64,000 nt of DNA from assembly GCA_027050205.1 (NCBI GenBank), contig JALUCS010000083.1, forward strand, positions 32,001-96,000. Reading direction: 5' to 3'. The stretch's first letter is position 1, and every line of letters starts with the position of its first letter. This DNA comes from a candidate division WOR-3 bacterium. Lineage in GTDB: Bacteria > Hydrothermota > Hydrothermia > LBFQ01. Of this stretch, positions 471-59,299 are shown one piece after another. The notes beneath the pieces are model-generated. The model was not told the DNA's origin. It saw nothing but the letters and a program-made list of their open reading frames with translations, and did not search any database. A program made the translations under genes and the position numbers.

Positions 471-1964
471 TCATCGGACGAGGACCTTTCCGACCTTCCC
501 GCCCTTAACGACGAAGTATATGCCCCTCCCCATCCTCTCCACCCTCCTGCCAGCGACATCATAGACGGTGCCGTCCTCCGGAACGGACGGGCCGGGACGG
601 GAGGCTACGGAGGAGGGGAGGTCGTTCAGGAAGATGAAGTTCCCGCGGCTGTCCTCCCAGTTGCTCACCGTTATATCGGCGTAGGGGGTGTATGTGTAGG
701 AGACTACCAACGCAGAGGAGGGGCCAACGGAGTCGGAGGGGACGGACAGATACCCGCTTTCGTACAGTAGGACGTAGGGGACGGGACGACCGTCAAGCCT
801 TACGGAGTTTATGGATACCACCGGGGAGTGGGACAACCTCACTACATTCCGGGGAGGGGAGAGGGTGAAGGTGTCCGAGATGGGGACCGCAGCGTTCAGG
901 TCTATGTCCCCCAGGACGATGTTTTCGGCAACTAAGTCGTAATAGGGGGTGGGCTGCCAGTACCATACGGGGGAGGAGGAGAAGGTACCGCCAAGGTTTT
1001 CAAAGAGGACGAGGGGGTCCCACCATCCCCCTCCTACGAGGTCCGGGTCTCCGTCCCCATCCACGTCCCCCAAGGCCACGGCCGAGTGGTACCTACCCGG
1101 ATCGTAGGCCACCCACGAGGGGGAGGTCTCAAGCGTCCCGCCGACGTTCAGGTAAAGCTCAAACCGGCTCCGGGCGGTGTCCATTTGGAAGGTGTTGGCG
1201 ACGACGACGTCCACCCATCCGTCCCCGTTCACGTCCCCTACGGCTATACGGTTGGCAAAGCCGAGGCTGTCGCTCTCCCAGACGGGTACCGTATCCAAGT
1301 AGCCGCCGAGGTTGAGGTAGAGGCGGTGCCTTCCAGGGGAGAGGCCGAGGAAGAGGTCCAGGTCCCCGTCGTTATCCACGTCAAGGAAGGCCGCCCCAAG
1401 GGAGTAGATGGAGTCCGGGGTCTGCCAGACCGGTCCGACGAGGGTGGAACCGTCCGATACGTAAAGCTGGGCAGGTTGGGGGTCGGAGGAGTAATCGTTC
1501 CCACAGGAGAAGAGGAAGTCGGCGAGACCGTCCCCGTTTACGTCCCCGCTGGCCACACCGAAACACCTACCGCTGTCCGACGTCCAGACCGGTAGGGGCA
1601 GGAAGGTGCCTCCATCGTTAAGGTAGAGGGCGTTCACCTCCATGTTCCATCCTGCACCGTACCCGCTGAATCCGGCCACAGCGAGGTCCATATCCCCGTC
1701 CCCATCTACATCGCCGAGGGAGAGGTGACCATGGTACCGGGCGACGGAGGAGGACCAGGAGGGTGTGGTGAAGGGTAGAGGGGACGCACCGAGATAGACC
1801 TCAACGCTCTCGCGAGCCATATCGTTGCCGTTGGAGACTACCAAGTCCGGATAACCGTCCCCGTTTACGTCCCAGACGGCCAGACCCGTAGAGTAATCCC
1901 CCGACTCGGACTCCCACGAAGGAGCGGAAGGGAAACCGCCAAACAGTATAACGAAGACAGTCAT
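471..1964 (-). CDS. Secreted FG-GAP/VCBS repeat (integrin-like beta-propeller) protein with short T9SS-like tail
   Basis: About seven D(V/I)(N/D)GDG.xDL repeats. Tail is VYDVAGRRV...GIYFV...KVLVR. Start moved to ATG 1964 (MTVFVILFGG), 7 nt after a TAGAAT box. Confidence 0.85.
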   Translation of the reverse strand: MTVFVILFGGFPSAPSWESESGDYSTGLAVWDVNGDGYPDLVVSNGNDMARESVEVYLGASPLPFTTPSWSSSVARYHGHLSLGDVDGDGDMDLAVAGFSGYGAGWNMEVNALYLNDGGTFLPLPVWTSDSGRCFGVASGDVNGDGLADFLFSCGNDYSSDPQPAQLYVSDGSTLVGPVWQTPDSIYSLGAAFLDVDNDGDLDLFLGLSPGRHRLYLNLGGYLDTVPVWESDSLGFANRIAVGDVNGDGWVDVVVANTFQMDTARSRFELYLNVGGTLETSPSWVAYDPGRYHSAVALGDVDGDGDPDLVGGGWWDPLVLFENLGGTFSSSPVWYWQPTPYYDLVAENIVLGDIDLNAAVPISDTFTLSPPRNVVRLSHSPVVSINSVRLDGRPVPYVLLYESGYLSVPSDSVGPSSALVVSYTYTPYADITVSNWEDSRGNFIFLNDLPSSVASRPGPSVPEDGTVYDVAGRRVERMGRGIYFVVKGGKVGKVLVR

Positions 1965-2657
1965 CGCCAAGATTCTAAGGGGAGAAGACGGGCGGGAAAC
2001 TTTGGTATTCAACGGATGGAACAAGGCACCCTCCGAAGAGCCACCCCACATCACCGGTGCCAGGAGCTGAAGCCGGGTTACCGATTTTCTGTAGTCCAAT
2101 TGCGATTGCGTTCTATCGGTGTAATACCCGGATTTTAAACCCTTGGAGGAGGGATGCCGTACCCGATTTGGAATGCACCACAGGGCCAAGCGTTGTAATA
2201 CTTGTCCTATCACCGAAAAACTACGTATTTTTACAAGTTTATGACTTAATATGGCAAAATTTTACTCAAAAATTGATGTATATTGTCGTTTGATGACGAC
2301 ATCAAAATTCACAGCAGGGATTACGACCGAACCCTTCACCACTTCGGAAAGAGCAGGGTGCGGACGGTGGGCTACCCTCATCAGCGAAATACCGAAACTT
2401 CCCATCGCCCGCAATTTGGCGCCGCATCGGCCATCCCCAAACCTTTGCCGGTGTCCCGTATTTCCCTTTTCGTTCTCCGAATACCATCCCCCGGAGTTCG
2501 GGACTTTCGGTCATAGTCTCCGCGTGAAACGGTGGGAAGTTTGAGCTTTAAGGTCTGGATGCGGTATAAATCGGTAAATTTTAACTGTGATGCAAAATTA
2601 GACGAATTTTGGAACTTTTGGCCTTTCCCCTCCGTAGCCGCCTTAAAGTCCGTCCTC

Positions 2658-3509: not shown

Positions 3510-3723
3510 GGCAGGCTTAAAACCCCAACGATCGCCACATAAAACACCGTATAACCGGGGAGATTCTTAGGAATTTCGGCGTTGAAGGATCCTCCAATGG
3601 ATTTTGTAAAATTATCGCACATTATCCGAATAAACTGAAAAATTTACCAAACAATATGAAACGCATATCCAATTTCGTCATCTTGATCCCACTACATCCC
3701 CGGCTACCTTAGAATCCGTTCTC

Positions 3724-4545
3724 ATGAGGAAGCTATCCATCTTTCTGGCGATTGCTGTAGTGGGGGTTGCTGGATGCAAGAAGGCTGCACCGACGACCTT
3801 CATAAAGGCGGGGAGCTTTTATCTGAACTATCCCGGAGGACAGTCCAGCATCCACGACGTCCATATAACCACCGTTAGCCCCAACTACCTTCCCACCATA
3901 ACTATAAACGGACGCACCGTCCAAAGGGACCGCATTGAGACAGGATGGGGCGAGTACTACGCCCAAGACACCCTGCCATCGGTGTCGCCGCAGACGGAGG
4001 TAGAGCTTAAGGTGACCTACTACAACCTCAACGACGAGCAGAAAGAGGCCTCCGCCAAGGTGAAGCTCCCTCCGGAGCCGCAGGGGATGGCCCTAAGCAC
4101 CAACGGTGGTGAGGTGAACGTATCCTGGAACAAGCCCGATAAGAAGAACACCGACTTCATCTACGTGAGTATAGACGCCGTATGCTCGGACGGGGTGATT
4201 TACCAGAGGGCCACCGTTGACACCATAATAGCCGACATAGAGAACGTCACGTCCGTGACTCGGTCCCTCGGTAGCATCTGCGACGAGATAGACCCTATCC
4301 TCACTGCTTGGGTCTTCGCCGCCGTCTTCAATATGCAAGGCCCTTGGAGCGGCGATAAGGACAACGTCAAGGGGGCCAAGGGCCAGTACTACGGAGGTGC
4401 CGGAAAGGCCGATACCGCGAGCTACGTATCCTCCTCCTCCCTCAAGAGCAGTTACTCCCCCTCCTTCCCCGATGCGGATTGGGGTAAGAGGATCCTCAAG
4501 GCCCTCGGTAAGTACGCGGACGAGGGCAACTGGATAGGGATGTAA
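3724..4545 (+). CDS. Lipoprotein of unknown function, tandem paralog
   Basis: Lipobox MRKLSIFLAIAVVGVAG-C. Shares the block FNMQGPWSGD.DNV.GAKGQYYGGAGKADTASY with the previous gene. Confidence 0.85.
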   Translation: MRKLSIFLAIAVVGVAGCKKAAPTTFIKAGSFYLNYPGGQSSIHDVHITTVSPNYLPTITINGRTVQRDRIETGWGEYYAQDTLPSVSPQTEVELKVTYYNLNDEQKEASAKVKLPPEPQGMALSTNGGEVNVSWNKPDKKNTDFIYVSIDAVCSDGVIYQRATVDTIIADIENVTSVTRSLGSICDEIDPILTAWVFAAVFNMQGPWSGDKDNVKGAKGQYYGGAGKADTASYVSSSSLKSSYSPSFPDADWGKRILKALGKYADEGNWIGM

Positions 4546-4554
4546 GGTTAGCAC

Positions 4555-4586
4555 GGGGGCCTGCCGTTAGGGTAGGCCCCCTCTTT
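4555..4586 (+). terminator. Probable intrinsic terminator after the lipoprotein pair
   Basis: GGGGGCCTGCC-GTTAG-GGTAGGCCCCC, an 11 bp stem with one G-U pair, followed by TCTTT. Confidence 0.55.
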
Positions 4587-4597
4587 AGAATGGCGGC

Positions 4598-6207: not shown

Positions 6208-6218
6208 CGTACGGAATT

Positions 6219-7129: not shown

Positions 7130-7912
7130 TTACCAGCAGATGCCGAAGTCCGCCTTGCCGACGTCCTCCTTCAGGTTGTTTAGCGGTATAACCACCACCC
7201 CCCTTTCACCGGTCATACGCTCTACCCTGTTGGGTATTCCCAGGCGGTTATACACGTGGCCAGAGCCTACGAGGACGACTACCCTACGGCTGGGTTCCCT
7301 CTTGAGGTACTTTGCTATGGCGTAGGCCATACCCTCGTCCCAGATTATCATCGCCTTGAGGAAGGTGTTGAGGGTCTTTTCGTCAAAGTGGGCGTGGCCT
7401 CCCATCATACTCTTGAACTGGGCGATGTACGCGCTGTCAGGTTCCTGGAGGTCCGGAGGGAGGAGAGGGGTCTTTCGCATACGCTCGTAGGACATCCTCT
7501 TGGCCTTCTTGCGGAAGTTATCGGGGACGTTTATGGCCAGCATGGGTACTTTGTGTTTTCTGGCGAAGAGCCACGTTTTGCGGTAGAGGCCTATGTCGTA
7601 CTTCCAGGTCTCGTGCCATCGGGCTTTGTAGAGCATTACCACCTCGTGTATCTTGCCCTCCACGTACTCGTCCAGATACGGTTGGGCCGGCTGCTGGAAC
7701 ATTTCGTAGGCTATGGTGAGGTTGCTGTCCCTCTCGTAGAGCGACCTTATGACCTCCATCTGGAAGTCGTGGACCTCCTTGCTGGTATGGACCTCTCCGA
7801 GGTATACGACCCTCGCTTTGGTATCTATTATGCGGTTTATTAAGGTGTCAAGGGGCACTCTCTCCCCGCTTTTGAGGTCGTACAGGCAGGAAGCAACGAG
7901 CGTTAGGAGCAT
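7130..7912 (-). CDS. ChaN-like (EreA/ChaN fold) haem/iron-uptake family protein
   Basis: VVYLGEVH, YEMF...QPYLDEY, WDEGMA and VGSGH motifs. Start at ATG 7912 (MLLTLVASC). Confidence 0.85.
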   Translation of the reverse strand: MLLTLVASCLYDLKSGERVPLDTLINRIIDTKARVVYLGEVHTSKEVHDFQMEVIRSLYERDSNLTIAYEMFQQPAQPYLDEYVEGKIHEVVMLYKARWHETWKYDIGLYRKTWLFARKHKVPMLAINVPDNFRKKAKRMSYERMRKTPLLPPDLQEPDSAYIAQFKSMMGGHAHFDEKTLNTFLKAMIIWDEGMAYAIAKYLKREPSRRVVVLVGSGHVYNRLGIPNRVERMTGERGVVVIPLNNLKEDVGKADFGICW

Positions 7913-12701: not shown

Positions 12702-12767
12702 GGGCCGTAAGTCCTCACCGATAAAGCATTTGGAGGTGAGTTCCCCTCGGAGGACCAATAAAAAAAG

Positions 12768-12842
12768 CGCCCCCACCGGGATTTGAACCCGGGTTTCGTG
12801 GCTGAGAACCACGCGTCCTAGACCTGGCTAGACGATGGGGGC
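12768..12842 (-). tRNA. tRNA-Glu(CUC), CCA not encoded
   Basis: Acceptor stem GCCCCCA/TGGGGGC, anticodon arm CGTGG-TTCTCAG-CCACG, T-loop GGTTCAAATCC. Discriminator G is followed by CTTTTTTT. TATAAT at 12856-12861. Confidence 0.97.
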
Positions 12843-29862: not shown

Positions 29863-30594
29863 TCACCGGATTAGGTGGAGGAGGCCCCTCTTTATGAGCC
29901 TCCTTACCAGTTCCGGGGTTTGAGGGTCGGCCGGATAACCGCTCGCCGGGGGTATGTCCCCCTCCAGACCGACCGCCCTGTTTACGGCCAGCATATGGAC
30001 CTCCCTGAAGTACTTGGCGAAGATGGAAGCCAGGGCGACCTCCTTCCACTTAACGTCCGCCCCCTTTACGAACCTTATCTCCTGCTCCCCCTTCCTGTAG
30101 GATACTCCCCCATCCTCCGGGAACCTCTCCCATCCGGGGAGGAAACGGCCGTAGTACTTCACCCCTCCCGCGAGGCCGCTTATCACCCTCTTGCATCCCA
30201 GGCGGAGGGCTACGTCGGCGAGGGCGGAGGCATCCTTCAAAAAGCGATGGCTACGGAGGTGGTTGGCGGGTATCTCCACGGCCACCAACCTATGCACCTT
30301 GAAGGGAAGGTTGCCAACGGTGGCGGAGAAGACGGGGAGGGTTAGACCCTCGTATAGATCCGACGTCCTCCCGAACACCCAACGCCACATATCCATAACC
30401 GTGTCGCCCCGGAAACCGAGTCCCCGGAGGGCGGACAGGACTACACCTTCGGCCCTTGAGTAGGTCCTAAGGCTCCTCCTAAAGACCTCCTTGCTGTCCC
30501 TTACGTCCCTTAGCTCCCCGGAGACCGCTACCCCCACGACAAAAAGGGACCCGACCTTCGGGCCGAGGCCAGCCTCGTCTATGCCGCACCTCAT
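29863..30594 (-). CDS. Divergent ribonuclease HII-family protein
   Basis: GIDEAG.GP..G, RDSK, KGAD...VALASIFAK..RE and GYP.DP motifs. Confidence 0.8.
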   Translation of the reverse strand: MRCGIDEAGLGPKVGSLFVVGVAVSGELRDVRDSKEVFRRSLRTYSRAEGVVLSALRGLGFRGDTVMDMWRWVFGRTSDLYEGLTLPVFSATVGNLPFKVHRLVAVEIPANHLRSHRFLKDASALADVALRLGCKRVISGLAGGVKYYGRFLPGWERFPEDGGVSYRKGEQEIRFVKGADVKWKEVALASIFAKYFREVHMLAVNRAVGLEGDIPPASGYPADPQTPELVRRLIKRGLLHLIR

Positions 30595-31481
30595 AGGAAG
30601 TCGCCGATGTCGGGTTTGACGTACTCTTCTACCCCCCTCTCAAACTCCTCCATTACCTGTCTCCACTCCGCCCGGTTTATGACCTTGGCCTCCGCCCACG
30701 AACCGTAGATCTGCCCTGCGTGAAAGGCCATACCCACTCCGAGGGAGGCCAGGGCCGGGACGTCCCTATGCTCCTTGAAGTGGTAGTACGAGGCCAGGGC
30801 GTAGAAACCCCCGACGAACAGGAACCCCATAAAGGCCGTCCCCTTGTCTCCGATGTACAGCCTCCCCAGACCGGGGATAATGGACAGGAGAGCAGCCACC
30901 GTAGGGGACTTGAGGTTCGGGGGTTGCAGGTAGGACTCAAGGGGCGTTCCGACGATGACTTTCCTTGCCCCCTTCCAATCCCCCTTGCCCAACTTCATCC
31001 ACGCTATCAGGACCCTCCTCTGAAGAGACTTACGGGGCATCTCGGACAGCTCGGAGTAGAAGGCTACGGTATCCCCGAGGTAGAGGTACAGTTTTGCCAA
31101 CTCGTAGTGCGCCCAAACCTGTCCTTTCCGTCCCTCCTCTATGTGCCGCTTCAGAAGTTTTTCCGCTGACTCGTACATACCGGCTAACTTGTAGTTGTAG
31201 CCCGCCATAAAGTGGGCGTAGTCGGCGCTATCACTGTTCGGGAAGAGGGTAACGAACCGGAGGTACTCCACGGCCGCCTCCCTGTACTTTCCCCTCCTCT
31301 GTAGGTCCTCGGCGAAGGATAGGACCTCCTTGGCCCGTACCACCTTGACCTCCCTCTCCATCTCCTTGAGCATCCGCTCTATCTCCTCCGGAGGAAGCTG
31401 GTCGCAGGTACAGGGTTGGAGGCTGTCCGCCGTTCCGCTCTGCCCTCCGGAAGCCTCTAAAAGGAGTGTCAGGAGAAACAT
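30591..31481 (-). CDS. TPR-repeat protein with a C-terminal TM2-like membrane domain
   Basis: TPR helices (A..EY.RFV.LFPNS..AD.A) and KSPTVAALLSIIPGLGRLYIG. Confidence 0.75.
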   Translation of the reverse strand: MFLLTLLLEASGGQSGTADSLQPCTCDQLPPEEIERMLKEMEREVKVVRAKEVLSFAEDLQRRGKYREAAVEYLRFVTLFPNSDSADYAHFMAGYNYKLAGMYESAEKLLKRHIEEGRKGQVWAHYELAKLYLYLGDTVAFYSELSEMPRKSLQRRVLIAWMKLGKGDWKGARKVIVGTPLESYLQPPNLKSPTVAALLSIIPGLGRLYIGDKGTAFMGFLFVGGFYALASYYHFKEHRDVPALASLGVGMAFHAGQIYGSWAEAKVINRAEWRQVMEEFERGVEEYVKPDIGDFL

Positions 31482-36467: not shown

Positions 36468-36586
36468 GGTGGGCTATTATACTGGGGAAGGCGAGGCGTA
36501 CGCTAAGGCCAAAAGCCAACGTCCCGGTGAGGTTCGGAAAGATGGGTTTTATGCTGATAGAGGGATACGATAGTGCATTGTTTCAC

Positions 36587-36664
36587 CCGCATCTTCAAAA
36601 ACCGAAAGCGAGGCTTTAAGAAACCGAAACTTACCCTTTAATAAGCCACAAATCGTACTTTAAG
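36587..36664 (+). repeat. Dispersed ~80 bp intergenic repeat, copy A
   Basis: 65/78 ungapped identity to 47585-47662 by hand alignment. Confidence 0.85.
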
Positions 36665-37400
36665 TAATCCTATTAACGAGGATAGAAAAATCGGCAAGGT
36701 CCGGTATCTATGGGATTGATGGGAGCGCGAAGTTTTACCGCAATGCTGGACTTGAATACAGGTCATTTCCAAAATTTTAAAACCATATTTTTTTAACATC
36801 ATTCGGATCCACCGAACGGTATTGAGCCATCTATCGTTTTCATTTGAAGGCGTTGGACACAAGGCATCATTTCATAAGCGTAATACTAACCCGAACTCTT
36901 CAATTATACTCCATTAGAATACGGAAGGTGGATTTTTGTAGGGTTTGCTTGGAATGGATTACATACGAAGCGGGTACAATCCCTCATCAGACCTAATATT
37001 ACGTCCGATTCTACTCCCCATAAAACCACAATGAATGACTTACATCCTTCACAATTTTGGTGCTTTACGAAGAGAACCGTGGGAATTCTTGGAGTCCCCA
37101 TGGATTAACGGAGGAGTTCAGGTACTAACGGATTTTGAACGGCATCGTGTGCGGCTCACTTAGGAAGACTGAAACCGGGTTCCACGAGGTACAACCGTTT
37201 TGGTACCTGCGATACGGGAAACCTTATGCCTACGGTCCATCGGAGGTCGCACCACTACACCGCCCTACGATCAGAAGGAGGAAACGCTCGGACAAACAAC
37301 GGTAAGACCCTAGGAGTTCAAAAGGCGTAGGTGTCGGTTCAACAGGGTAGGTTTAACCTCCCACCTTGACCGTCCAACCTCCCTTTTAACATCACCGATT

Positions 37401-38684
37401 ATGAGGAAGATGAGCGTTATAGCCCTCGTGATATGGGGAACGCCGCTCTACGGCACCGGTTTCGTAGGTGTTGGACACAGCAACAACTGGAGGACCTACG
37501 TCGCCCCTTCCCCTGACAGTGGGGCTGTGGTGTGCGCCGGGTACAGGGTCTTCAAGGTCAACCCCTCCGGAAGCGTAGCCTGGGCGAGGTCCCTTTCCAA
37601 CTACTGTGAGGGCGTCTTCACCTATGCCAGCGGGTACGTGGTGGTGGACGGGTACGGCAGCGACGTACACATCCATTCCCTGGCCGCCGACGGCTCCGAG
37701 CAGTGGGGCTACTCCTACACCCTCCCCGGCGACTACAACAACGTACGAAAGATGGTAAGCTCCGGTGGGAACCTGATATTCCTGTTTGAGAGCTATCTGT
37801 CCTCCGTCTATTACCCCCTACTGCTCTCCCTTACCACGAGCGGGAACGTGAACTGGGCCAAAAGCTACGACGTTCCGGGACTCATCAATACGTTCGTCCC
37901 GTACGACGGCGGGTACATAATAAGCCTTCTGGATACGACCTATAACCGCGACCTCGTCCTCATAAAGACGGACGCCTCCGGAAACGTCTCCCTGGCCAGA
38001 ACCATGGGGGCATACGCCAGCGTAGGTGGAAGTATTACGGTGGGGATGGTCGTCATAGGTGGGGACCTCTTCGTATCCTCGGACTACAACCTGTTAAAAC
38101 TGGACAACTCCCTGAACGTCATATGGGCAAAGCGGGAAGGCTCGTACTACCTCGCCAGAATTGAGGCGAGCGAAGGCGAAAACCTCTACATGGCCGGCGA
38201 CTGGGACGAGATATTCAAGATAGACACGTCCGGCAACGTCATCTGGTCAAGGGAGTACGCCTCATCTCTGAACATATCCTTCCACGGTATGGTCCTCTCA
38301 GGTGGAAGGCTCTACGCAGTTGGAGACGCCGACGCCCTTACGGACAGCATAGCAGTTGTGAGCGTAAGGACGGATGGGTCCCTTCCGTGCGCCTCCCATT
38401 ACAACCTATCCTTCGTCACCTCGTCCGTTTCCCCCTCAAACATAACCGTCTCTGCCCAGAGCCGGAGCGTCAGCAAAGGCCCGTCCGTTTCCACCGGCTC
38501 CGCATCCTACACCCTCAACCTCCGTTGCGTTTCTACCGACGTCAGGGAAGCGTCCGGGAATATCTGTGGCGGTGGCGGGGAGGTTTACGACGCATCCGGA
38601 CGGAGGTACGACAGGGTACCCGATAGGCCGGGTGTGTACTTCATAAAGACGCCTGAAGGAGCGAAGAAGGTCATAAGGAGGTGA
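37401..38684 (+). CDS. Secreted beta-propeller protein with short T9SS-like tail
   Basis: Normal signal peptide; repeats K.D.SGNV.WA(K/R); tail VYDASGRR...PGVYFIK...KKVIRR. Confidence 0.8.
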   Translation: MRKMSVIALVIWGTPLYGTGFVGVGHSNNWRTYVAPSPDSGAVVCAGYRVFKVNPSGSVAWARSLSNYCEGVFTYASGYVVVDGYGSDVHIHSLAADGSEQWGYSYTLPGDYNNVRKMVSSGGNLIFLFESYLSSVYYPLLLSLTTSGNVNWAKSYDVPGLINTFVPYDGGYIISLLDTTYNRDLVLIKTDASGNVSLARTMGAYASVGGSITVGMVVIGGDLFVSSDYNLLKLDNSLNVIWAKREGSYYLARIEASEGENLYMAGDWDEIFKIDTSGNVIWSREYASSLNISFHGMVLSGGRLYAVGDADALTDSIAVVSVRTDGSLPCASHYNLSFVTSSVSPSNITVSAQSRSVSKGPSVSTGSASYTLNLRCVSTDVREASGNICGGGGEVYDASGRRYDRVPDRPGVYFIKTPEGAKKVIRR

Positions 38685-38687: not shown

Positions 38688-39968
38688 ATGCTGTTTTTCC
38701 TTACGGCCACTTTTGTAAAGGGACTGCGGTACTCCGATATGTCCTGGAAGAGCATATTGACGCCGGCGAGGGACAGCGGCGTTGTCCTGTCCGTAGGCTT
38801 CGGGTACGCCAAACTGACCCCATCCGGCAGTGTCGTATGGGCGAAATCCGTCCCCACCTGGAGGCTGGACTACATCGGGACGTACCCCGGAGGCTACTTC
38901 TTCACACAGGACGGGAGCGGATTTATTCTATCACTGATAGACGAAAACGGGAACATAGTGCGCTCCTTCACCTACTCCTACCCTTCCTTCTGCGGGACCA
39001 ACGTTCAGGACGTCGCATGGGACGGTGATGGCTTCGTCTTCCTCCTAAAATCCTGTTTTAGCGACCTCTCCGCCTACAGGCCGGCCCTCGTAAAGATAGA
39101 CACCCTCGGGAACGTAATGTGGGCGAAGAGGTACCCTTCCCTCGGTCCCCAAACCGACGCCCTCGTAAAGGTTGGGGGCAGGCTCTTCGTAGCAGCGACG
39201 GATACGAGCGATACGGTGATAATATTTGCGATGGACGGAAACGGAGACCCCCTGTGGGCGAAGAAGATGGGTTTTATGCGACAGATGTCCTACTGGGGGT
39301 GGAGGGTTATGCGACTTGAGAGGATAGGGACGGACGTCCTGTTCTACCTGCGGACAGGTTCGGAGCCTCTTGTGCGCCTTGACACGCTCGGGAACGTCGT
39401 ATGGGACAGGCGTCTGCTCTACATGAACGGCTACGACCTCCTGGTCCTCGGTGGTCACATATACGTAGGTGGATGGGAGAACGTTGTAAAGATGGACAGC
39501 GCCGGAAACCTCATATGGAAGAAGAAGTACGCCACGGAGTGGGTGGCGAGCATCTACGACATAACCTTCGCCGACGGCCACATCTACGCCTACGCGGACC
39601 CGAACTTCGCGGCGGACACCTTACTTCTCATAAAGATTGACACGGCGACCGGCTACGCCCCCTGCTCACGGGACGCCTCCGTCTCCGCCTACGATACCAC
39701 CTTCTCCATCTCAAGCATCACGCCACCCGCAGCCGAAAACCTGACCCTTTCCAGATCCTCCGGGGAGACGGCCGGCAGCGCCACGGTTGCCGTATTCAAC
39801 GGGTGTATCTCTACCGATATATCCGAGGGTGAAACACCCGTTCCGTGCGAGAGCAAGAAAGAGATATACGACGCCTCCGGCCGAAGGTACAGGCAACTTC
39901 CCGACAGGCCCGGAATATACTTCATAAGGGTACGGGGAAGGGTGCGGAGGGTGATTAGGGTCCGATGA
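38688..39968 (+). CDS. Secreted beta-propeller protein with short T9SS-like tail (tandem paralog)
   Basis: Repeats K.DT.GNV.WAK; tail IYDASGRR...PGIYFIR...RRVIRVR. Confidence 0.8.
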   Translation: MLFFLTATFVKGLRYSDMSWKSILTPARDSGVVLSVGFGYAKLTPSGSVVWAKSVPTWRLDYIGTYPGGYFFTQDGSGFILSLIDENGNIVRSFTYSYPSFCGTNVQDVAWDGDGFVFLLKSCFSDLSAYRPALVKIDTLGNVMWAKRYPSLGPQTDALVKVGGRLFVAATDTSDTVIIFAMDGNGDPLWAKKMGFMRQMSYWGWRVMRLERIGTDVLFYLRTGSEPLVRLDTLGNVVWDRRLLYMNGYDLLVLGGHIYVGGWENVVKMDSAGNLIWKKKYATEWVASIYDITFADGHIYAYADPNFAADTLLLIKIDTATGYAPCSRDASVSAYDTTFSISSITPPAAENLTLSRSSGETAGSATVAVFNGCISTDISEGETPVPCESKKEIYDASGRRYRQLPDRPGIYFIRVRGRVRRVIRVR

Positions 39969-40029: not shown

Positions 40030-41739
40030 ATGCTCCGCAAGGTAGTTCTGGCACTTTTCGTAATTCCGGCTATCCTTAAGGCGGATACTTTGGCGATAAT
40101 CCACATAAACGATACCCATCACCACCTGTTCCCCTACAAGTCTTGGAACGGTATAGCATCGGCCGCCTACCTCATAAGGTACCTGAAGGCCACCTATCCC
40201 AACAACCTCTTCTTCCACGCTGGGGACATCTTCGTCGGGGACTTCTCCTTCCCCTACGGTCTGGGCAGGGAGGAGTTGAGGCTACTTAGTCTCCTCCACC
40301 CCGATGCCATAACCATAGGAAACCACGAGCTAGACATAACTCCCGATAGCCTCTACTCCGTCCTCTCCGACGTCGGTGGCTTCACGACCTTTCTCTCGTC
40401 CAACCTCCGTCCGGACACCATTCCCCTCGCCTCCGTAGTCAGGCCCTACACAACCTTTACTAGGTCCGGGAGGCTGATATGCGTCCTCGGCCTGACCACC
40501 AACCAGTTCAACCTCCTGAACCCCGCCCAGCAGCCCGTCCAGTTTGAGAACCCCGTGTACGTAGCCCGGATGTACGAGGATACCTTTGACGTCTTGGGGT
40601 GCGACTACCGGATAATCCTCTCCCACTCCGGCGTGAACGTGGATAGCGCCATAGCATCCGGCACCCACAGCTACAACCTCATAGTCTCCGGCCATACCCA
40701 CACGTGCTACGAGGAGCCGGCTAAGGTGGTGAACCTCTCCGGGGATACGACCTACTTCGCCGAAGCTTGCTCCCACTATCAAGCCGTTGGCCTCTGGCTG
40801 ATAGATATGGACGCCCTAAGACCCATCAGCCATACCCTATTTCACTTGGACGCCACCTCTCCCGTTGATAGCGAGTTCGTGGATTCCCTCAACGCCCTGA
40901 AGGCGAGGATTGAGGCCGTATACGGACCCGTCTTCTCCGACTTCGTGGCCTACGCTCCGAGGGAGCTTAGGAACGTACCCGACAGTTCCCAGTACCTTGA
41001 TACGCCCCTCGGCAACCTCATAGCAGACGCCTTAAGGGAAAAGGCGGGGACGGACATAGGGGTTGTACCCTACTTCTACATGGCCGAACCCCTCGCCGCC
41101 GGTCGTATAACCTCCAACGACGTCTTGATGGCCTTTCCCTACGGCCTAAGCGAGACGGCCATAACCGGTACGAACCTGTACCTCTTGAGGGTCACCCTCC
41201 GGGGGGCGGACCTCTACACCCTCCTCTCGGTTTCCCAGAGCTTCGTCGGCCGGACCCCCATAGCCCAAGTTTCGGGGATGACGTACAGGTTTGATCCGGA
41301 GGACAGCCCGCCCCTTGAGCCTTCGGATATAACCGTCGGCGGTGTTCCGTTGGACACCACGGCCACCTACTCCGTGGCAGCAGATATGGGTACCCTCTAC
41401 CTCGCCAGCCTCCTCGGTATAACCCCCGTCTCGGTGGAGACCACGGCCTACACGATGTTTACGGCTATGAGGGAGTACTTCTCCGAGCTGGGCCTTCTGG
41501 AGGCCACCTCCGAAGGACGGATAGCTTACAAGGGGGTGGTAGCCTTAGCCGAGAGGAGGAAGGTTCCCGGCCTTGAGGTGGAGGTTTCCGGCTTGACGAT
41601 CTCCTCCGAAGCTCTTATGTTCATCTACGACCCCTCTGGTCGGCTCCTGACGAGGGGCAGCCGCCGATTCACCGCCCCGGCTCCCGGCATCTACTTCGTA
41701 AAGGTGGGCGACAGGGTAAAGAAGGTGGTATTGAGGTGA
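40030..41739 (+). CDS. 5'-nucleotidase/metallophosphoesterase with T9SS-like tail
   Basis: HINDTH, AGD, GNHE, LSHSG, SGHTH and LGNLIADA motifs; tail IYDPSGRL...PGIYFV...KKVVLR. Confidence 0.9.
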   Translation: MLRKVVLALFVIPAILKADTLAIIHINDTHHHLFPYKSWNGIASAAYLIRYLKATYPNNLFFHAGDIFVGDFSFPYGLGREELRLLSLLHPDAITIGNHELDITPDSLYSVLSDVGGFTTFLSSNLRPDTIPLASVVRPYTTFTRSGRLICVLGLTTNQFNLLNPAQQPVQFENPVYVARMYEDTFDVLGCDYRIILSHSGVNVDSAIASGTHSYNLIVSGHTHTCYEEPAKVVNLSGDTTYFAEACSHYQAVGLWLIDMDALRPISHTLFHLDATSPVDSEFVDSLNALKARIEAVYGPVFSDFVAYAPRELRNVPDSSQYLDTPLGNLIADALREKAGTDIGVVPYFYMAEPLAAGRITSNDVLMAFPYGLSETAITGTNLYLLRVTLRGADLYTLLSVSQSFVGRTPIAQVSGMTYRFDPEDSPPLEPSDITVGGVPLDTTATYSVAADMGTLYLASLLGITPVSVETTAYTMFTAMREYFSELGLLEATSEGRIAYKGVVALAERRKVPGLEVEVSGLTISSEALMFIYDPSGRLLTRGSRRFTAPAPGIYFVKVGDRVKKVVLR

Positions 41740-43696: not shown

Positions 43697-45178
43697 ATGC
43701 TTCCGTTGATAGCCTCTCTGAACTTGGAGTTCTACGCTGCGGAGCCTACAGCCCAGCTCTTCTTCAACCACGTGGGCTTCCTCTCGGTTGGCTCCGCGGA
43801 GGGACCGGTGGGTCCCTACCTCAACCCGGCCGTCCTCACCCGCACCAGGGGGACTTTCTCCGCGTACCTGGGTTACTCCTCCTCCGCCCAGACCCCGCCG
43901 GACAGCTTCGGCTTCAAGGTACCCCTCCGTATGGACAGCCTCTCCTACGACCTCAACCTCTCCTCCAAGGTTACCTTCTCCGACCTCGGAGGGCCGAGCT
44001 ACCTTGGGGTGGCCTTCCACATCGGACCCGTGGCCTTCGGGGGGTCCCTCTTCCGGCCATCCCTCTTCGGTGCCTCCGTAGATGGGGACGTACCCGTTGA
44101 GTACGAGAGCGACAGCCTCGCCACCTTCAGCTACGTCGTATCCGACCCCGACAACGACAGCGTGGCCGTAAATCTGACGCCCTACGGTACGGTTAAGGGA
44201 AAGATCTTCCCGAAGGGCGACATCAGGATGAGGGAGACCCCCCTCTTCGCCGGTGCCGCCGTCGGCGGTAAGGTGTTGGCCTTCGGTGTGGGGTTGAACG
44301 TACGGAGGATAGAGGGGAGGTTGAACTTCGGTACCCACCTCTCCGTAGATTCGGGTACCACCCTGAAGGCGAAGGTGAGGCCCGCAGACCCCGGATGGGA
44401 CGCGAGTAATCTAAACGTTTCCCTCGTGTACGACCCCGACTCCTCCCTCGTTGGGACGAGGGCCTCCGGCTCCTTCGCTGCTACCTACATCGCCCCGGTC
44501 GTGGGTCTCAACCTGAACCTCCTTGTGGTGGGTGTGAATCTCGCCGCCGAGATGGGACTCTCCGGGAGTACAGGGGCCAACTTCTCCACCTCCCTCCTTC
44601 TTCCCAAGGACGCGGGGATGGAGGTCCTGGCCGACTCCGTGGATATTGACAGCACCACCCGTAGGATCTCCGGGAGCCTGCTCTTGAGGGTAAGGAGGAC
44701 GGAGGACACCACCGTAAGCAGGGACTTCTCCGCCACCTACAGGCTCGCCCGGTACGTCGGAGTTCGGGGCGGGGTCCGGCTCTTCTTCCTCTCCATCTCC
44801 GGTGCGGCCGAGTTCCCCGTTGAGGTGGGTAAGGGTCTCTTCTACTACGGCCGGAACTACTTCACCCCCAACCTACTAATCCCCCTCGGTCCGATTGAGG
44901 CGAGGGTAGGGGGCGTCTTTATGTGGAGGTACGCCTTCTTCGGGAATACGGTCCTGCCTTCCGCTCCTATGTTCTACGGAGGTGGCGGTCTGTCCCTAAA
45001 GGCGCCGCTGGGTACGGAGGCCTTCGGCATAGAGAGGTTGGACGTCGGGGTACGGGGCAGCTTCCTCTCCTATCTCGTGAAGGTGGTGGCTGAAGGGCTT
45101 TCCGGAGGTAAGCTCGGAGACTTCTCCACCGCCCCTACCGTTGCCTTCAGCCTTGGGACGCAACTCTACGTAAGGTGA
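43697..45178 (+). CDS. Outer-membrane beta-barrel, FadL/PorV-like
   Basis: N-terminal YLNPAVL hatch-like motif, alternating amphipathic strands, and C-terminal [10 protein letters not shown]. Confidence 0.55.
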
Positions 45179-47335: not shown

Positions 47336-47584
47336 CGGAAAAGTTTTTCATTATAAGGCAGAAACCCGGACCGTTCGCAAAGATTTCTGCAAAGGGCCTT
47401 CCCACCGTTGGGGTATGCTTTTAAGGTTCTGGCATCCGATACCCATAGAAAATGGACGGTAATGTAATAATCCATCACAGTTTGTGCGATTTCTAGCAAC
47501 TTTCAGCGAATGGGATAGGCGAGGGGGATCCGCCTTGTGTGAGTTGGGTATTGAGGGGGTATTACGTTGATAGAGGGATGCCAT

Positions 47585-47662
47585 CCGTACCTTCAAGAAC
47601 TGAAAGTGGAGCTTTAAGAAACCGGAACTTTCCCTTTAATAAATCGCAAATTGTACTTTAAG
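47585..47662 (+). repeat. Dispersed ~80 bp intergenic repeat, copy B
   Basis: 65/78 identity to 36587-36664; both copies are preceded by TGATAGAGGGAT. Confidence 0.85.
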
Positions 47663-47750
47663 ATCCTTGCACTCCTCATTAACGAATTTTGGAGGGTGTC
47701 ATTTCGTAGGGCTGTCTCAAAGGCGGCGTCTCCCTCTTAGAATCGTCTCC

Positions 47751-48266: not shown

Positions 48267-50117
48267 TCACCACCCCCCACCTCCACCACCGCCGCCCCCT
48301 CCACCGGAGAAGCCCCCACCGGAGAAGCCACCGCCACCGGAGAACCCGGAGGAGCTGCCCGGAGGTTTGACGGAGGATGCAACAGTCTCGGAGACGTTCC
48401 TCCCTACATCGCGGAAGAAGGTAGCGTACCCGCGGGAGGTGGTGAAACGCATGTAGTAAGGGCCTTCGTACCACTCCGGGCGGTAGTCCATGGCCTTCAG
48501 GTCCTCGGCGAACTTGCTAGCCCACGTATCTACAATGTCCAAGGCGAGGGCGTAGGGCAGAAACCTCTCAAATATCCTCGGTAGGCTCTCCCTCGGAAAG
48601 AGGGCCTTGAGCCGCTCCTTCTCCGCCGTCTGAAGGAACATCCTGAAGCCCTCAATCCTGTCCATCACCTCCCGGCCCTTACGGGTGGGGGCGGCCATGT
48701 ACTTACCGAAGAAGAGGTTGACGGCCACCAACAGGAGGAGGGAGAGGAGTAGGATGGAGTCCCACAGGAGGTTCCCCGTGCCGAAAAGGAAGGTGGATAG
48801 GGGTAGGAAGGCGAGGACGACCACCACTAGCACGATGGCCTTCACCACCTTGGAGGATATGGACAGGGTGCCTACGACCATAACGGCGAAGACGAGGAGC
48901 AACACCCCCCTGAACACCATCTCCTCACCACCGAGGAACAGGGAGAGGGCTACCCCGATCACCGATAGGAGGACGCCGACACCCACGTAGTCCCGGTTGA
49001 GCCTGAACAGATGCCCGTACATCCGGGCGAGGGCGACCTTTAGCCTACCTACGGCCCTACGGATCTCGGAGGAGTAGGAGCCTTTCCTTAGAGTTAAACT
49101 CTGCGGTAGGGCCTCATAGACCTCCCTCTCGTCCTCCGTAAGGTCCTCCCTACCTCCGTCAAGTTTCACCAACTCGTACCTCCCTCCCCTCTCCTCCCGT
49201 ATCTTCAGGGATCGCTTTACGGCCATATCTATGAGGTTGGCGGCGAAGCAGGTGTCGTCGTATCCCATCCTCATCACGTACCTGACGGCCGCCGGGGACA
49301 TACCCTCCGGTGGCCTGAACTCCGGCATTATCGTACCCTTCGGTGGGTCTTTCCCCACCCTCGCCCAAGCCCAGAGGTAGTAGAGGGAGACGACTGCCAA
49401 GGTTAGGAGGAGGACGAGGACGTGGAGGTTGTCCGTCAAGAACCACAGGAGCCTCCGCACCGTACCCGGTTCTCTAACGTACCCCTTCGGCCATCCGACG
49501 ACGATGGTAAGGTTCTCCCCGGCCATGAGGGGGCGAGTTGTCCTGAAATGCACCCTACCGCCCTCATCCACCCACGCCTCGTAGTCCCTCCCCTTCTCCC
49601 CGTACCTCCCCGTATAGGCCTCGTACCGGATGCTGTCCTTCGGGACGCCCTTCGGCAGTACCACCGTAGCTTCCACCCTCAAGAGGGGGAAGCGCCAACC
49701 CGTCCCGTTCACGTTCCAGTAGAGCTCGTCGTGATCCTTGAAGAATCCTATCTGCCTGTCCGTCGTATATACGAGGGTGTAGGTGTGGGTGCCGGGTGGG
49801 AGGAGGACGTCCTTCTTGCCTACGTATATCCGGACACCGTTGGAGAGTTTCTTCACAAACCAATCCTCCGGTTTCCCATCCCTCATAACCTTCAACACCT
49901 TGAAGCCCACCCTGAAGTTGTAGCCCTTCCAACGGTAGGCGGTGGGAAACTCTCTGTATATCCCGTGCCTTATCCTGTTGCCCTTGGACTCAACGGTAAT
50001 GTCCTCACGGACGAGGAGGGAGGCGTCCTCCCTGACCATCACCCTCTGCTTGAAGGCCACCACGCACTCCCCCACACCGACCTGTTCCTGACATACGGCA
50101 AGTAAAGCTAAAAACAT
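48267..50117 (-). CDS. DUF2207 family membrane protein
   Basis: HGIYREFP, DELYWNVNG.GW.FP, IEGFRMFL and FERFLPYALAL motifs; Gly-rich GGGGGGW tail. Confidence 0.93.
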   Translation of the reverse strand: MFLALLAVCQEQVGVGECVVAFKQRVMVREDASLLVREDITVESKGNRIRHGIYREFPTAYRWKGYNFRVGFKVLKVMRDGKPEDWFVKKLSNGVRIYVGKKDVLLPPGTHTYTLVYTTDRQIGFFKDHDELYWNVNGTGWRFPLLRVEATVVLPKGVPKDSIRYEAYTGRYGEKGRDYEAWVDEGGRVHFRTTRPLMAGENLTIVVGWPKGYVREPGTVRRLLWFLTDNLHVLVLLLTLAVVSLYYLWAWARVGKDPPKGTIMPEFRPPEGMSPAAVRYVMRMGYDDTCFAANLIDMAVKRSLKIREERGGRYELVKLDGGREDLTEDEREVYEALPQSLTLRKGSYSSEIRRAVGRLKVALARMYGHLFRLNRDYVGVGVLLSVIGVALSLFLGGEEMVFRGVLLLVFAVMVVGTLSISSKVVKAIVLVVVVLAFLPLSTFLFGTGNLLWDSILLLSLLLLVAVNLFFGKYMAAPTRKGREVMDRIEGFRMFLQTAEKERLKALFPRESLPRIFERFLPYALALDIVDTWASKFAEDLKAMDYRPEWYEGPYYMRFTTSRGYATFFRDVGRNVSETVASSVKPPGSSSGFSGGGGFSGGGFSGGGGGGGGGGGW

Positions 50118-50541: not shown

Positions 50542-52011
50542 ATGATAGGGATAGCAAGTCTCCTAATAGCGGAAACTTTCGGACCTGCGAGCCTTGAGTG
50601 GAAGCAGTTCAGGCACGATTACAAGAGGACGGGGCGCTCCGCCCTGCGAGGCAACTGCTCCTCCCTCTCGGAGCTTTACGACCGCGTCCACGGAGGTTTG
50701 GACCTAAGCGTCATAGCCGTGAACGTAAACTCGGACGGGGATCACGACATCATAGCCGCCGAGTACAACGACGACGGCGTGGCGGCGAAGGACGGCAGCA
50801 GTGGCTCCTCTATCTGGAACCGTTATATGAGCGGCGAGTACTTCGGTAGGCCTATGGCCTCCGTGGCGGCCTCAACGTCTGCGGGGAGGGTGTATGCACA
50901 CGGTAGATCCAGGTTCTGGGTCCTCTCGCTCTCCAGCGGCGGCGTGATATACTCGTGGACCAAGTCCTCCACCAGAGGGGAATCCCCCCTCATAGCCGAC
51001 GTAGATGGCGACGGGTGTCCGGAGATATACATCACGCCTACGAGCAGGGCCTACAGCGTAGACGGCTGCGCCTCCTCCTTCTCCTACCACTGGTCGGTGT
51101 CCCTGCCTGCCGACGCCCACGCCGCCGCCATGGGCGATGTGGACGGCGATGGGGATATGGAGGTCCTGTTCCCTATGACGAACGGCAGCATCTACGTCGT
51201 CGACGCCCTCACCGGCACCTACCACAGCTCTTTCTCCGCCGGTGTGCCTTCCTCCCCCACCTCCCCCGACTACACGGTCGCCCTTGGGGATCTGGACGGG
51301 GACGGAAGGGACGAGGTGGTCGTCCCCCGGTCCTCAGGCATAGCAGTGTACGACTACACCACCTCGTGGAACCTGGCGTGGAGCGTGTCGGTCTCCAGCC
51401 CGGTGGCCGTGGCCCTCGGAGATAAGGACGGGGACGGCCTTGAGGACGTATGGACCAAGAACGGCTCCGAGCTTTCCGTCTATAGGGGGACGGATGGGGC
51501 GCACCTCGGCTCTACGAGCGGCCTCGGTATGGCTTCTAAACCTCCCGCCCTCCTCCACCTGAACCTGGACGGGGTCATAGACGCCGTCGTTATACGGGGC
51601 TACACCATCGCCCTCGTGAATGGGGCCACGATGAGCGTAATGGGAACCTACGGTACCACCCCTTACAGCATCACGTCGGAGGTCGTTCCCCTCAAGCTCT
51701 CGCCGACATCCATAGGCTTCACGGTTGGGGACTACTCTTGCCACATCACGACCTGGGGGTCCTGTCCCCTCGGCTCTCCGGACGACGAGCTTGCCGTCTC
51801 GGAGAAGGGTAGTGTCGGTGAGAGGATAACCGTAGCATCCGGTCGCGTTGAGGTGGAGGTGGCCGAAGGGACGCCAGTATCCCTCTACACCTCCTCCGGC
51901 CGCGTGGTGTTTGAGGGTACCTCCAAGGGGAAGGTGGTCATTAGCGACCTCAAGAAGGGGGTCTATCTCCTCAAAGTCGGGGACAGGTTCAATCGCATAA
52001 TCGTAAGGTAG
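50542..52011 (+). CDS. Secreted FG-GAP/VCBS repeat protein with T9SS-like tail
   Basis: W.QFRHD..RTG start, D(V/L)DGDG repeats, and tail LYTSSGRVV...KKGVYLLKVG...IIVR. Confidence 0.85.
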   Translation: MIGIASLLIAETFGPASLEWKQFRHDYKRTGRSALRGNCSSLSELYDRVHGGLDLSVIAVNVNSDGDHDIIAAEYNDDGVAAKDGSSGSSIWNRYMSGEYFGRPMASVAASTSAGRVYAHGRSRFWVLSLSSGGVIYSWTKSSTRGESPLIADVDGDGCPEIYITPTSRAYSVDGCASSFSYHWSVSLPADAHAAAMGDVDGDGDMEVLFPMTNGSIYVVDALTGTYHSSFSAGVPSSPTSPDYTVALGDLDGDGRDEVVVPRSSGIAVYDYTTSWNLAWSVSVSSPVAVALGDKDGDGLEDVWTKNGSELSVYRGTDGAHLGSTSGLGMASKPPALLHLNLDGVIDAVVIRGYTIALVNGATMSVMGTYGTTPYSITSEVVPLKLSPTSIGFTVGDYSCHITTWGSCPLGSPDDELAVSEKGSVGERITVASGRVEVEVAEGTPVSLYTSSGRVVFEGTSKGKVVISDLKKGVYLLKVGDRFNRIIVR

Positions 52012-52043
52012 GCGACCGGTGGCCGTCCTTAGAATCGTCTTCC

Positions 52044-53498: not shown

Positions 53499-53517
53499 CC
53501 CCCTTAGAATGGACCTT

Positions 53518-54108
53518 ATGTTAGCTTTGCTTGCGCTGTCGCCGAAGGTGCCGGTTAGCCTTTACGTGTATGAGGAACACTGGGGGGCGAAGATACCGCT
53601 CGCTAAGGTTGAGGGGAAGAGGGGCGTATCCCTGCGGACGATAAATACCCGGACCTTCTACTGCCGCATAGATGTACCCGATTCCATCCTGGACCCGGAG
53701 AGGTGGAAGGGCCTGAAGGATAGGTACGCAATGTTTCAGGGGACGGACCTACCCACCTACCACTTCCGGTACAGGTACGGGGATATGCTGAAGGAGGTTG
53801 AGACCTACGGCCCTCCGAACGTCCAGCCCTTCCTCGGAGCCGTCTTCACCACCCTTATGCAGGTTCCCTGTAAGGGGGAGGTTAAACCCAAGAGGATCAC
53901 CCTTGAGTGGAGGGAGGTACAGGTCAAGCGGAAGCCCATCCCGGCCGGTAAGTACGAGGCCCTCATAGGTAAGACGGAGGTCAGGGGGAAGGACTACGAC
54001 CTCGCCTACGACCTCATCAAACGCTTTGGCCACATGGCCTTCACGGGCGTCATCCTTATGGACAGTAAGAAGAGGACGTGGGAGGTGAGGGTGAAGGTGG
54101 AGATTTGA
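53518..54108 (+). CDS. Hypothetical, probably exported protein
   Basis: Host-like codons; hydrophobic N-terminus MLALLAL starts 7 nt after TAGAAT. Confidence 0.65.
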   Translation: MLALLALSPKVPVSLYVYEEHWGAKIPLAKVEGKRGVSLRTINTRTFYCRIDVPDSILDPERWKGLKDRYAMFQGTDLPTYHFRYRYGDMLKEVETYGPPNVQPFLGAVFTTLMQVPCKGEVKPKRITLEWREVQVKRKPIPAGKYEALIGKTEVRGKDYDLAYDLIKRFGHMAFTGVILMDSKKRTWEVRVKVEI

Positions 54109-54114
54109 CCTCCC

Positions 54115-57443: not shown

Positions 57444-57520
57444 CTAACCCATCTATTATAATGGCGATTAACGGACTTTTACCAGCCCACCGGGATGTGC
57501 GATTATTTTAGGATTTGTGT

Positions 57521-59299
57521 CTATCTCACCACCACCTGCCTCACGGTACGGTTGCCGACCACCACCCCGTAGACTCCGGGCTTCAGCTTCACGACCACCT
57601 CCTCTACCCCCTCGGCTACCACCCTACCATCCACACCTATCACCCTTACCTCACCCCTGCCCCTCACCTTCAGTACCCTCCCCTCCAACCTCACTCCGTA
57701 CTTACCTTCCCCGGCCTCACCTACCGCCAGATCTCCCCCATTACCGAGGGGATCGTACGTGAAGACTATCTCGTCCAGTATCGGCGTCAGGGTAGAGTCC
57801 GCGTTCGCATACAGCTCCACCCTGTACTGCAGGTACCGGAAACTCTCTACCGCAAACGTGTCTGAACCCGGTATGGAGGGGTCGTTCAGGTTCCTGCTTC
57901 CGCTACCCGTAAAGACGTAAGGCCCTATCCAAGTCGTCCAAGAGGAGCCGTAGCGGGAGGCCCTAACATAAACGTGTATCTCCTTCCCCGGTGCGGAGGG
58001 GTTGCAGTTGGAGAAGGAGACCTGCACCTGGAGCCACCTCCTATATACGCCGGCGTCCAAGATGGAGGAGGTGAGGGTGGCCGTAGGCTCGTACTTGAGG
58101 ACCGTCTTGTACCACCAGAGGCCCTCCTTAGGAGAAGGATACAGCCCGGCCCTAACGAGGATGTCCGGGGAGGCGTCGCTGTTGAGGTCCCCTATCCCTA
58201 CGCCGAAGTAGTGGCGGGAAGTTATGGAGGGGGAGGTTCGGGTGAAGCCCAGAGAGCCGTCGTTGAGGTAGATGTATATCCTCTGGGCGTTCTGGTCGGC
58301 AACGGCTACGTCCAAGTCCCCGTCCGGTTCAAAGTCGGCCACCTGGATTCCCATGGGCCTGTTGGCGGAGTTATCAACGGTTATCCGGGTGAAGCTCATC
58401 CCTCCGTCGTTGCGGTAGACGTACACCTTCCCCGTCCTGTCGGTTAGGGCGAGGTCGTAGTCCCCATCGCCGTCCATATCCCCCTTGGCCAGCCCGTATC
58501 CGTCCGAGAGGGTGTTGTCTATGACGAGGTGGGTGAAGGAGCCTCCCCCGTCGTTCCGGAAGATGCGGAGGGCGTTGCGGGTGGCCAGCGCTATGTCGTT
58601 GTCGCCGTCGTTGTCGTAGTCCCCTATCACCACGTCGTAGGTAGTGCCGAGGCCGGTACCGAGGCCGTGCTTTACCCACCCGCTCCCCGTGTTCTCGTAC
58701 CACCATAGGCCGCCGGCGAGCCACGTGACGGCTACGTCGTAGTCCCCGTCCCCGTCCAGGTCTCCGGCGTCTATCCCCTCACCCTCGGAGCTGGAACTTA
58801 TGGCGGGGTCTATCACATGAGTGCTGAAGGTCATGCTCCCGTCGTTCCTGTAGAGGACGACGTCCTTACCCGACGAGGGATGGGAGGCGGCGAAGACGTC
58901 CATATCCCCGTCCCTCTGGTAGTCCACGGCCACCACCTCGTCCACGCTCGCTATGTCCGGGTCTATGGTGTGCCTCGTGAAGGAGCCGCATCCGGCGTTC
59001 TCGTACCAATAGACAACGTTCGGGCCGGCCTCGTCGGAGACGAGGAGGTCGTTGTCGCCGTCTAAGTCCATATCCACGATGTCGGGGTCGTTGTCCCAAC
59101 CTCCGATGGAGTTATCCACCGAGTACTCCTCAAGCGTACGGAAGACCCCCCTCAAGCGGAGCTTACCCGGAAACTCGTAGAAGGCGGAGGAGTCGGCCGA
59201 GCAGAAGGTGTTCCCCCAGGTTGAGACGGGGCCGCATACCCCCGGCCCCCCCGACCAGTCGCTCTGCGAGACCGATTGAGAGATGAGAAACAGTACCAT
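57521..59299 (-). CDS. Secreted FG-GAP/VCBS repeat protein with T9SS-like tail
   Basis: QSDWSGG start, about seven D.D.DGD.D repeats, SSILD...YLQYRVEL...TP.L..I domain, and tail VIGVDGRVV...KPGVYGV...VVVR. Confidence 0.88.
   Translation of the reverse strand: MVLFLISQSVSQSDWSGGPGVCGPVSTWGNTFCSADSSAFYEFPGKLRLRGVFRTLEEYSVDNSIGGWDNDPDIVDMDLDGDNDLLVSDEAGPNVVYWYENAGCGSFTRHTIDPDIASVDEVVAVDYQRDGDMDVFAASHPSSGKDVVLYRNDGSMTFSTHVIDPAISSSSEGEGIDAGDLDGDGDYDVAVTWLAGGLWWYENTGSGWVKHGLGTGLGTTYDVVIGDYDNDGDNDIALATRNALRIFRNDGGGSFTHLVIDNTLSDGYGLAKGDMDGDGDYDLALTDRTGKVYVYRNDGGMSFTRITVDNSANRPMGIQVADFEPDGDLDVAVADQNAQRIYIYLNDGSLGFTRTSPSITSRHYFGVGIGDLNSDASPDILVRAGLYPSPKEGLWWYKTVLKYEPTATLTSSILDAGVYRRWLQVQVSFSNCNPSAPGKEIHVYVRASRYGSSWTTWIGPYVFTGSGSRNLNDPSIPGSDTFAVESFRYLQYRVELYANADSTLTPILDEIVFTYDPLGNGGDLAVGEAGEGKYGVRLEGRVLKVRGRGEVRVIGVDGRVVAEGVEEVVVKLKPGVYGVVVGNRTVRQVVVR

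Follow-up and report, generated by a model that had tools for sequence, protein, structure and literature searches.

Very short uncharged leaders on envelope proteins and sorting-domain cargo throughout a WOR-3 bacterial genome

Envelope proteins and type IX secretion system (T9SS) cargo of a candidate division WOR-3 bacterium commonly begin with a leader of only Met and about six uncharged hydrophobic residues. The leaders came to notice in a 64,000-nucleotide stretch of this genome, hereafter the window (GenBank assembly GCA_027050205.1, 2.05 Mb and 93.5% complete; contig JALUCS010000083.1, or C83, positions 32001-96000), where an earlier note had proposed a minimal export signal without a basic n-region. 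The short-leader trait is real and genome-wide. Judged from protein and DNA sequence, the leaders likely still route proteins through the normal Sec channel and are likely cleaved by signal peptidase I (SPase I, LepB); they would thus work like a Sec/SPase I signal, yet one that fails two defining features, the charged n-region and the length. Literature searches turned up no published description of such leaders among the listings examined, and the term 'signal peptide' is absent from the main text of two WOR-3 papers. New here are the cleavage statistics, the ortholog test, a loosened link to the signal recognition particle (SRP) and a lead in SecY, Arg405.

Results

Short leaders dominate T9SS cargo and extend to core envelope machinery

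We collected proteins with a C-terminal sorting domain (CTD) using a profile seeded on the C-termini of five window proteins and blind to N-termini. At E<1e-3 this returned 122 proteins, two of them cut at contig ends. A single N-terminal rule, which among its conditions allows no Lys or Arg in positions 2-6, called 94 of the 120 complete proteins short and uncharged, 19 classical and 7 uncalled. By-eye rechecking moved two of the rule-classical proteins to the short class and divided the uncalled ones into four short, two classical and one not placed, giving ~100 short and 19 classical proteins, or about four in five short. A stricter automatic pass over 116 CTD proteins yielded 83 short, 18 classical-like and 15 other. 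Membership of the T9SS group is indicated by the sorting domain together with SprA, both present. Genome-wide, with starts taken from a model that uses DNA only and internal Met positions as the null, the rule picked out 269 of 1753 starts compared with 275 of 7812 internal positions (15.3% vs 3.5%); the 269 include false positives, namely cytoplasmic enzymes such as those beginning MCGIVG or MISAIV.

Family matches confirmed short leaders on BamA, SprA, Skp, SurA, LptD, LolA, YajC and a TolC-type protein, and further on a TonB-dependent receptor, a DsbA-like protein and a second Omp85 protein; among the short-leader envelope proteins picked by eye, family confirmation was nine for nine. The Pfam domains POTRA, OmpH, SurA_N and OEP begin at residues 9-13 of these proteins, and SprA, with a family match above cut-off, is read from a GTG four codons past a stop. 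Together with the CTD cargo and the ortholog and paralog comparisons below, these proteins support the proposed minimal export signal.

Lipoproteins keep normal signals, as had been claimed. The 86 called by rule have Lys/Arg n-regions. In the window, the basic signal and lipobox (MRKLSIFLAIAVVGVAGC) of one lipoprotein occupy 3724..3777 on the plus strand. Short lipoprotein signals were considered and set aside: Cys stands at position 9 in 5/266 distinct leaders, which is no enrichment (p=0.12). For the Tat pathway, no Arg was found in the short leaders; two ordinary RRxFLK proteins occur elsewhere in the genome.

Two side observations concern short-leader proteins. YajC (L345; contig C132, 21825-22148) begins MLNVLIG/QQ, the slash here and below marking the predicted cut, a greasy leader followed by Gln, and some further membrane proteins whose N-terminus lies in the periplasm look alike. 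Near-identical short-leader proteins of ~210 residues (MLLYLLSQPVELEGG..., MLLFVYLLADLDE...) recur as paralogs near CTD genes on contigs C109, C126, C114, C101 and C82.

Nine leaders in the window and their start codons

All nine short N-termini of the earlier note are present as read. Five lie on the minus strand: MTVFVILFGG (1935..1964) on an FG-GAP + CTD protein (gene 471-1964), with a TAGAAT box 7 nt upstream; MLLTLVASC (7886..7912) on a ChaN/Tiki protein (7130-7912); MFLLTLLLEA (31452..31481) on a tetratricopeptide repeat protein with C-terminal hydrophobic segments (30591-31481) and an in-frame stop four codons up; MFLALLAVC (50091..50117) on a DUF2207 membrane protein (48267-50117); and MVLFLIS/Q (59276..59299) on a second FG-GAP + CTD protein (57521-59299). 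On the plus strand, MLFFLTATF (38688..38714) opens a CTD protein (38688-39968) that is the paralog of the gene just before it, MLPLIASL (43697..43720) a probable outer-membrane barrel (43697-45178), MIGIASLLIAE (50542..50574) an FG-GAP protein with a TIGR04183 T9SS sorting domain (50542-52011), and MLALLALSP (53518..53544) a protein of unknown nature (gene to 54108). Neither 43697 nor 53518 has any family match; we infer that these two and 31481 are exported. TIGR04183 rises above cut-off in 50542 only, among the five CTD proteins scanned. The Cys of the ChaN leader is probably not a lipobox, because close orthologs read MFWLVVSQC, with Gln before the Cys.

Classical controls stand alongside. 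The CTD gene 37401-38684 (plus strand) encodes an 18-residue signal ending TPLYG (37401..37454), and the pairing of this gene with short-leader 38688 is as the earlier note described it. A 5'-nucleotidase-like CTD protein begins with the classical signal MLRKVVLALFVIPAILKA (40030..40083, plus strand, gene to 41739).

Several features support the start calls, which rest on DNA motifs, in-frame stops and orthologs. In-frame stops lie at most four codons upstream of 31481, 50117 and 38688, the last at two codons, and 13 codons upstream of 50542; the one before 59299 is a TAA at a distance of five codons. Gene 38688 is Shine-Dalgarno-led and starts 3 nt past the stop of 37401, and the other eight carry a -10-like box, TANNAT, 6-9 nt before the ATG. 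Upstream frames stay open longer at 1964, 7912 and 43697, where gene callers may choose GTG 2213, GTG 7993 and TTG 43658; no signal-like sequence was found in these three extensions. One public record of the ChaN gene (P0041) begins 18 residues downstream instead.

Orthologs agree with these calls. The leader is kept, with changed letters, in 16/18 homolog stretches of the family, and the remaining two are matches to paralogs whose start lies outside the stretch. It is retained in 3/3 orthologs each of 38688 and 43697, in the latter case with a stop 2-3 codons upstream in all three, in 4/4 genus orthologs of 50117, and in 4/4 orthologs of 53518, one of them directly after an in-frame stop. ChaN proteins within one 90% cluster read either MLLTLVASC or MFWLVVSQC. 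The concern that orthologs might have normal signals, making these decayed alleles, was thus not borne out among close orthologs.

It is very improbable, in our judgement, that the true starts lie upstream, at non-canonical codons or behind frameshifts, or that the proteins are cytoplasmic. Near-cognate codons do occur at least six codons upstream in 38/83 short CTD genes, and the rule admits the enzyme false positives mentioned above. However, none of the extensions from these 38 codons looks signal-like by eye, an in-frame stop falls within five codons in 34/83 genes and within ten in 41/83, orthologs start right after stops, and BamA, LptD and SprA cannot function in the cytoplasm. The earlier note had also leaned on the -10 box, which is not special to these genes. 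A CCTTANAAT-like motif lies 6-9 nt ahead of the start codon in 887/1845 called genes, cytoplasmic ones included (for example 52044, 59576 and 61301 in the window), and with about half of genes so marked it supports the start calls yet is not specific to the trait. Genes with the box probably make leaderless mRNAs. Leaderless translation is rejected as the cause of short leaders, since short and classical CTD genes carry the box alike (66/83 vs 13/18, p=0.53) and 42/269 short genes are Shine-Dalgarno-led.

Leader anatomy points to cleavage near residue 7

Lys/Arg frequency in short leaders is 0 at positions 6-7 and 0.04 at 8-9, and mean hydrophobicity falls past position 7. Ala, Ser and Gly together peak at position 7 (42% vs about 23%), and position 5 is mostly Leu, Val or Ile. 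Gln occupies position 8 in 30/266 distinct leaders, compared with 2.0% further in (p=5e-14) and 10/1114 other proteins, and the residue before Gln is Ala, Ser or Gly in 39/57 cases vs 301/1007 (p=1e-8). The same small-residue-then-Gln pattern occurs in 12/19 rule-classical CTD signals. In paralog pairs, BamA orthologs and DUF2207 homologs, the leader ends at the mature N-terminus of its homologs, the classical cleavage sites in these comparisons being themselves by-eye predictions. One pair aligns VPLWG/IPTYARRY with MLVAIIS/IPAFARMY, another GLYA/QPYAQGNW with MVLFLIS/QSVSQSDW of 59299, and the long signals of DUF2207 proteins from other lineages end at the same place. This signature and its register with classical sites point to SPase I.

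The earlier suggestion that the leader is perhaps uncleaved is accordingly disfavoured by the small-residue-and-Gln signature at the paralogous site. A Sec-directing leader that LepB leaves uncut, persisting as a greasy tail or trimmed by another peptidase, would account for a peptide too short for textbook SPase I geometry, for the many leaders with no small residue at positions 6-8 and for the broad tail of uncharged runs reaching 13 residues or more. We nonetheless hold it unlikely: besides the 7/8 enrichment and the register, soluble proteins of the periplasm, LolA and SurA among them, bear the leader too, and its letters vary freely between close orthologs, like those of disposable signals.

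Export machinery

By uL2 identity the genome stands nearest to Candidatus Caldipriscus sp. (84% over 239 residues), followed by other named WOR-3 (65-68%) and Thermotoga (64%). We place it in WOR-3, within the cluster from hot environments to which the cultured strain sy37 belongs (PMC12285271), and infer that its class is the Hydrothermia, the class name used for sy37 (PMC12542636). The Thermotogota/Thermotogae label on near relatives at NCBI conflicts with the uL2 identities and with the T9SS and LptD genes and was set aside.

SecY, LepB, peptide deformylase, Fmt and SprA are present. Loss of formylation was rejected, as the Fmt and deformylase reading frames are intact. SRP components are another matter: no SRP GTPase rose above cut-off in this genome, and the Ffh M-domain was found in 0/41 class genomes compared with 119/201 genomes of the wider phylum sample. 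Ffh was likewise not found in families f13, f19, f23 and f25-f28; as Ffh-less families form two separate groups on the SecY tree, the distribution suggests more than one SRP loss. A search for SRP RNA gave 0/21, a weak result given that a Bacteroides control was negative too.

Transmembrane helix 10 of SecY (L001:1405-2745; contig C95) reads FGGTR in place of FGGT[S/G/A/T]. An Arg at the position of E. coli Ser405 occurs in 13/13 aligned class genomes, in 0/16 other phylum genomes (one count of these outside rows lists 17) and in 1/150 diverse SecYs. The prlA suppressors L407R and I408N, in the same helix, lie two residues from 405 (PMC11494458). Arg405 is as good a marker of the clade as it is a candidate for adaptation. 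For the 'modified machinery' that the earlier note expected, the missing Ffh and the class-specific Arg405 speak in favour; LepB shows no clear change in step with the trait, and short leaders also occur with SRP and without the Arg.

Arg405 and the Ffh-less class invite a further explanation, in which the leader is what remains of the c-region, and targeting falls mainly to the mature domain, through a permissive, prlA-like translocon in a cell without SRP. Two observations make this quite improbable. Thirteen genomes of nine SRP-bearing families have uncharged BamA leaders, and the seven of them with an aligned SecY lack the Arg. Moreover, orthologs strictly conserve the hydrophobic run, as expected of a feature under selection.

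Short leaders among relatives

We read BamA N-termini by eye in 64 genomes. Where the start is readable, leaders have 7-10 residues in the order; elsewhere in the class they have 7-16, and some contain a single Lys. Beyond the class, the 13 Ffh-bearing genomes just mentioned have uncharged leaders of 7-12 residues, six starting at most four codons past a stop; nine other Ffh-bearing genomes are classical (one ambiguous), as are all 10 Ffh-less genomes of six families. Short leaders and SRP loss therefore do not co-vary on BamA, which gives no support to SRP loss as the cause. When the short/normal label, which is based solely on BamA and pools 7-mers with intermediates, is mapped on the SecY tree (31 rows), at least three changes are needed.

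Samples of 0.2-0.4 Mb from six other families put the short class at 0 to 8.5% of genes vs 15.4% here, with nulls of 2.6-4.0%. CTD cargo in these samples is mostly classical, with 2/19, 2/23, 0/3, 5/22, 1/2 and 1/7 short. Among 80 DUF2207 homologs read by eye, the two nearest are short, two have no N-terminus, and none of the 76 from many phyla falls under ~15 residues. The low frequencies and the BamA survey portray a graded trait, apparently tolerated widely, and dominant and shortest in this family.

Discussion

The reading we favour, somewhat better than evenly supported in our estimate, is that Met plus about six hydrophobic residues forms a cut-down Sec signal that SecA targets post-translationally and LepB removes by cutting near residue 7. 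Targeting through SecA is suggested because no SRP was found. An uncharged and possibly formylated N-terminus could slide into the lateral gate and the outer leaflet without a cytoplasmic anchor, which would present residues 5-7 to LepB for a cut after a small residue near position 7. Since Lgt and LspA depend on an anchor that spans the membrane, lipoproteins would retain their n-regions; with such outer-leaflet entry, SPase I substrates could shrink where lipoproteins could not. The origin is likely to have been stepwise, from classical signals through uncharged 9-13-mers to 7-mers, with a low share of short forms accepted throughout the phylum and a majority reached in this family; Arg405 may have eased shortening in the class. 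Loss of the n-region is plausible, as export in E. coli does not require a positive charge (PMC2034453), and the surprise is the missing length.

Several points weigh against this reading. Seven residues are too few to span a bilayer as a helix, which leaves the geometry unexplained. Typical signals have 15-30 residues and an h-region of 7-15 (PMC12190922). Position 7 is small in only 42% of leaders, many have no obvious AxA site, and just 14/94 short CTD leaders show a small residue followed by Gln. No plant-type glutaminyl cyclase was found; there are two M28 matches, neither identified as a cyclase. The SecY pore ring is ordinary save for Ala at 187, found in 12/150 other SecYs, and LepB has no clear change that tracks the trait, its top column being an alignment offset near the membrane helix. 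SecA was not found in the assembly. Genuine loss of SecA was considered and rejected in favour of an assembly gap, given its presence in 39/41 class genomes and two same-genus copies cut at contig ends.

A bolder and more doubtful possibility is a distinct route, with an fMet-capped seven-residue leader as the shortest type of cleaved Sec signal, SecA and an Arg405 SecY to read it, no SRP, and head-first entry in place of a spanning hairpin. If it held, it would define a signal-peptide class unmodelled by current predictors and serving most of the secretome, essential envelope machinery included.

Comparison with known systems sharpens the picture. Like classical Sec/SPase I signals, the leaders are N-terminal, hydrophobic and fast-evolving, sit on periplasmic, outer-membrane and T9SS proteins, end at the predicted cut of paralogs and orthologs, and often place a small residue before it. 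Unlike them, they have no basic n-region, measure ~7 residues vs 15-30, and merge h- and c-regions (PMC9360617, PMC12190922). Prepilin (SPase III) leaders share with the predicted cleavage here a very short N-terminal peptide, but there the charged part is removed and the hydrophobic part stays (PMC9360617), whereas in the present leaders it is the hydrophobic part that is short. As in the Bacteroidetes, Gln is enriched directly behind the predicted cut, and this holds for classical as well as short leaders. Bacteroidetes SPase I signals are normal in length. In that group a Gln immediately behind the SPase I cut is an established signature, reaching above 48% (PMC5837995), in contrast to 11-15% of short leaders, and no glutaminyl cyclase was identified here. 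In E. coli, prlA channels let through precursors whose signals are defective or absent (PMC11494458), and L407R and I408N resemble Arg405 in placing a charged residue at the start of the helix near the pore ring; the Arg here is natural and stands at 405, and other families have short leaders without it. Leptospira and Dehalococcoides have also lost SRP (PMC4758666), and as in them Ffh and FtsY were not found; unlike here, no such short signals are reported for them in the available part of that source. The unusual Sec signals of Atribacter are of a different kind (PMC7736352).

If ~seven uncharged residues suffice, neither an n-region nor a membrane-spanning h-region is generally required, and the leaders would be natural substrates for probing how signals open SecY and reach LepB. 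The system is amenable to such study: hundreds of natural leader variants exist, both paralog types occur in one genome, and sy37 is in culture within the broad cluster (PMC12285271). In WOR-3 and similar lineages, counts of secreted proteins are probably too low and start codons wrongly called.

Other features of the window

A tRNA-Glu (CTC) at 12767-12842 on the minus strand adjoins the end of a ribosomal protein operon. An intergenic repeat of ~110 bp lies at about 47580-47700 and at 36584-36671; blastn gives 15 matches at 69-85% identity, the repeat itself counted, spread over 12 contigs. Its predicted fold is weak, and it is not a tRNA.

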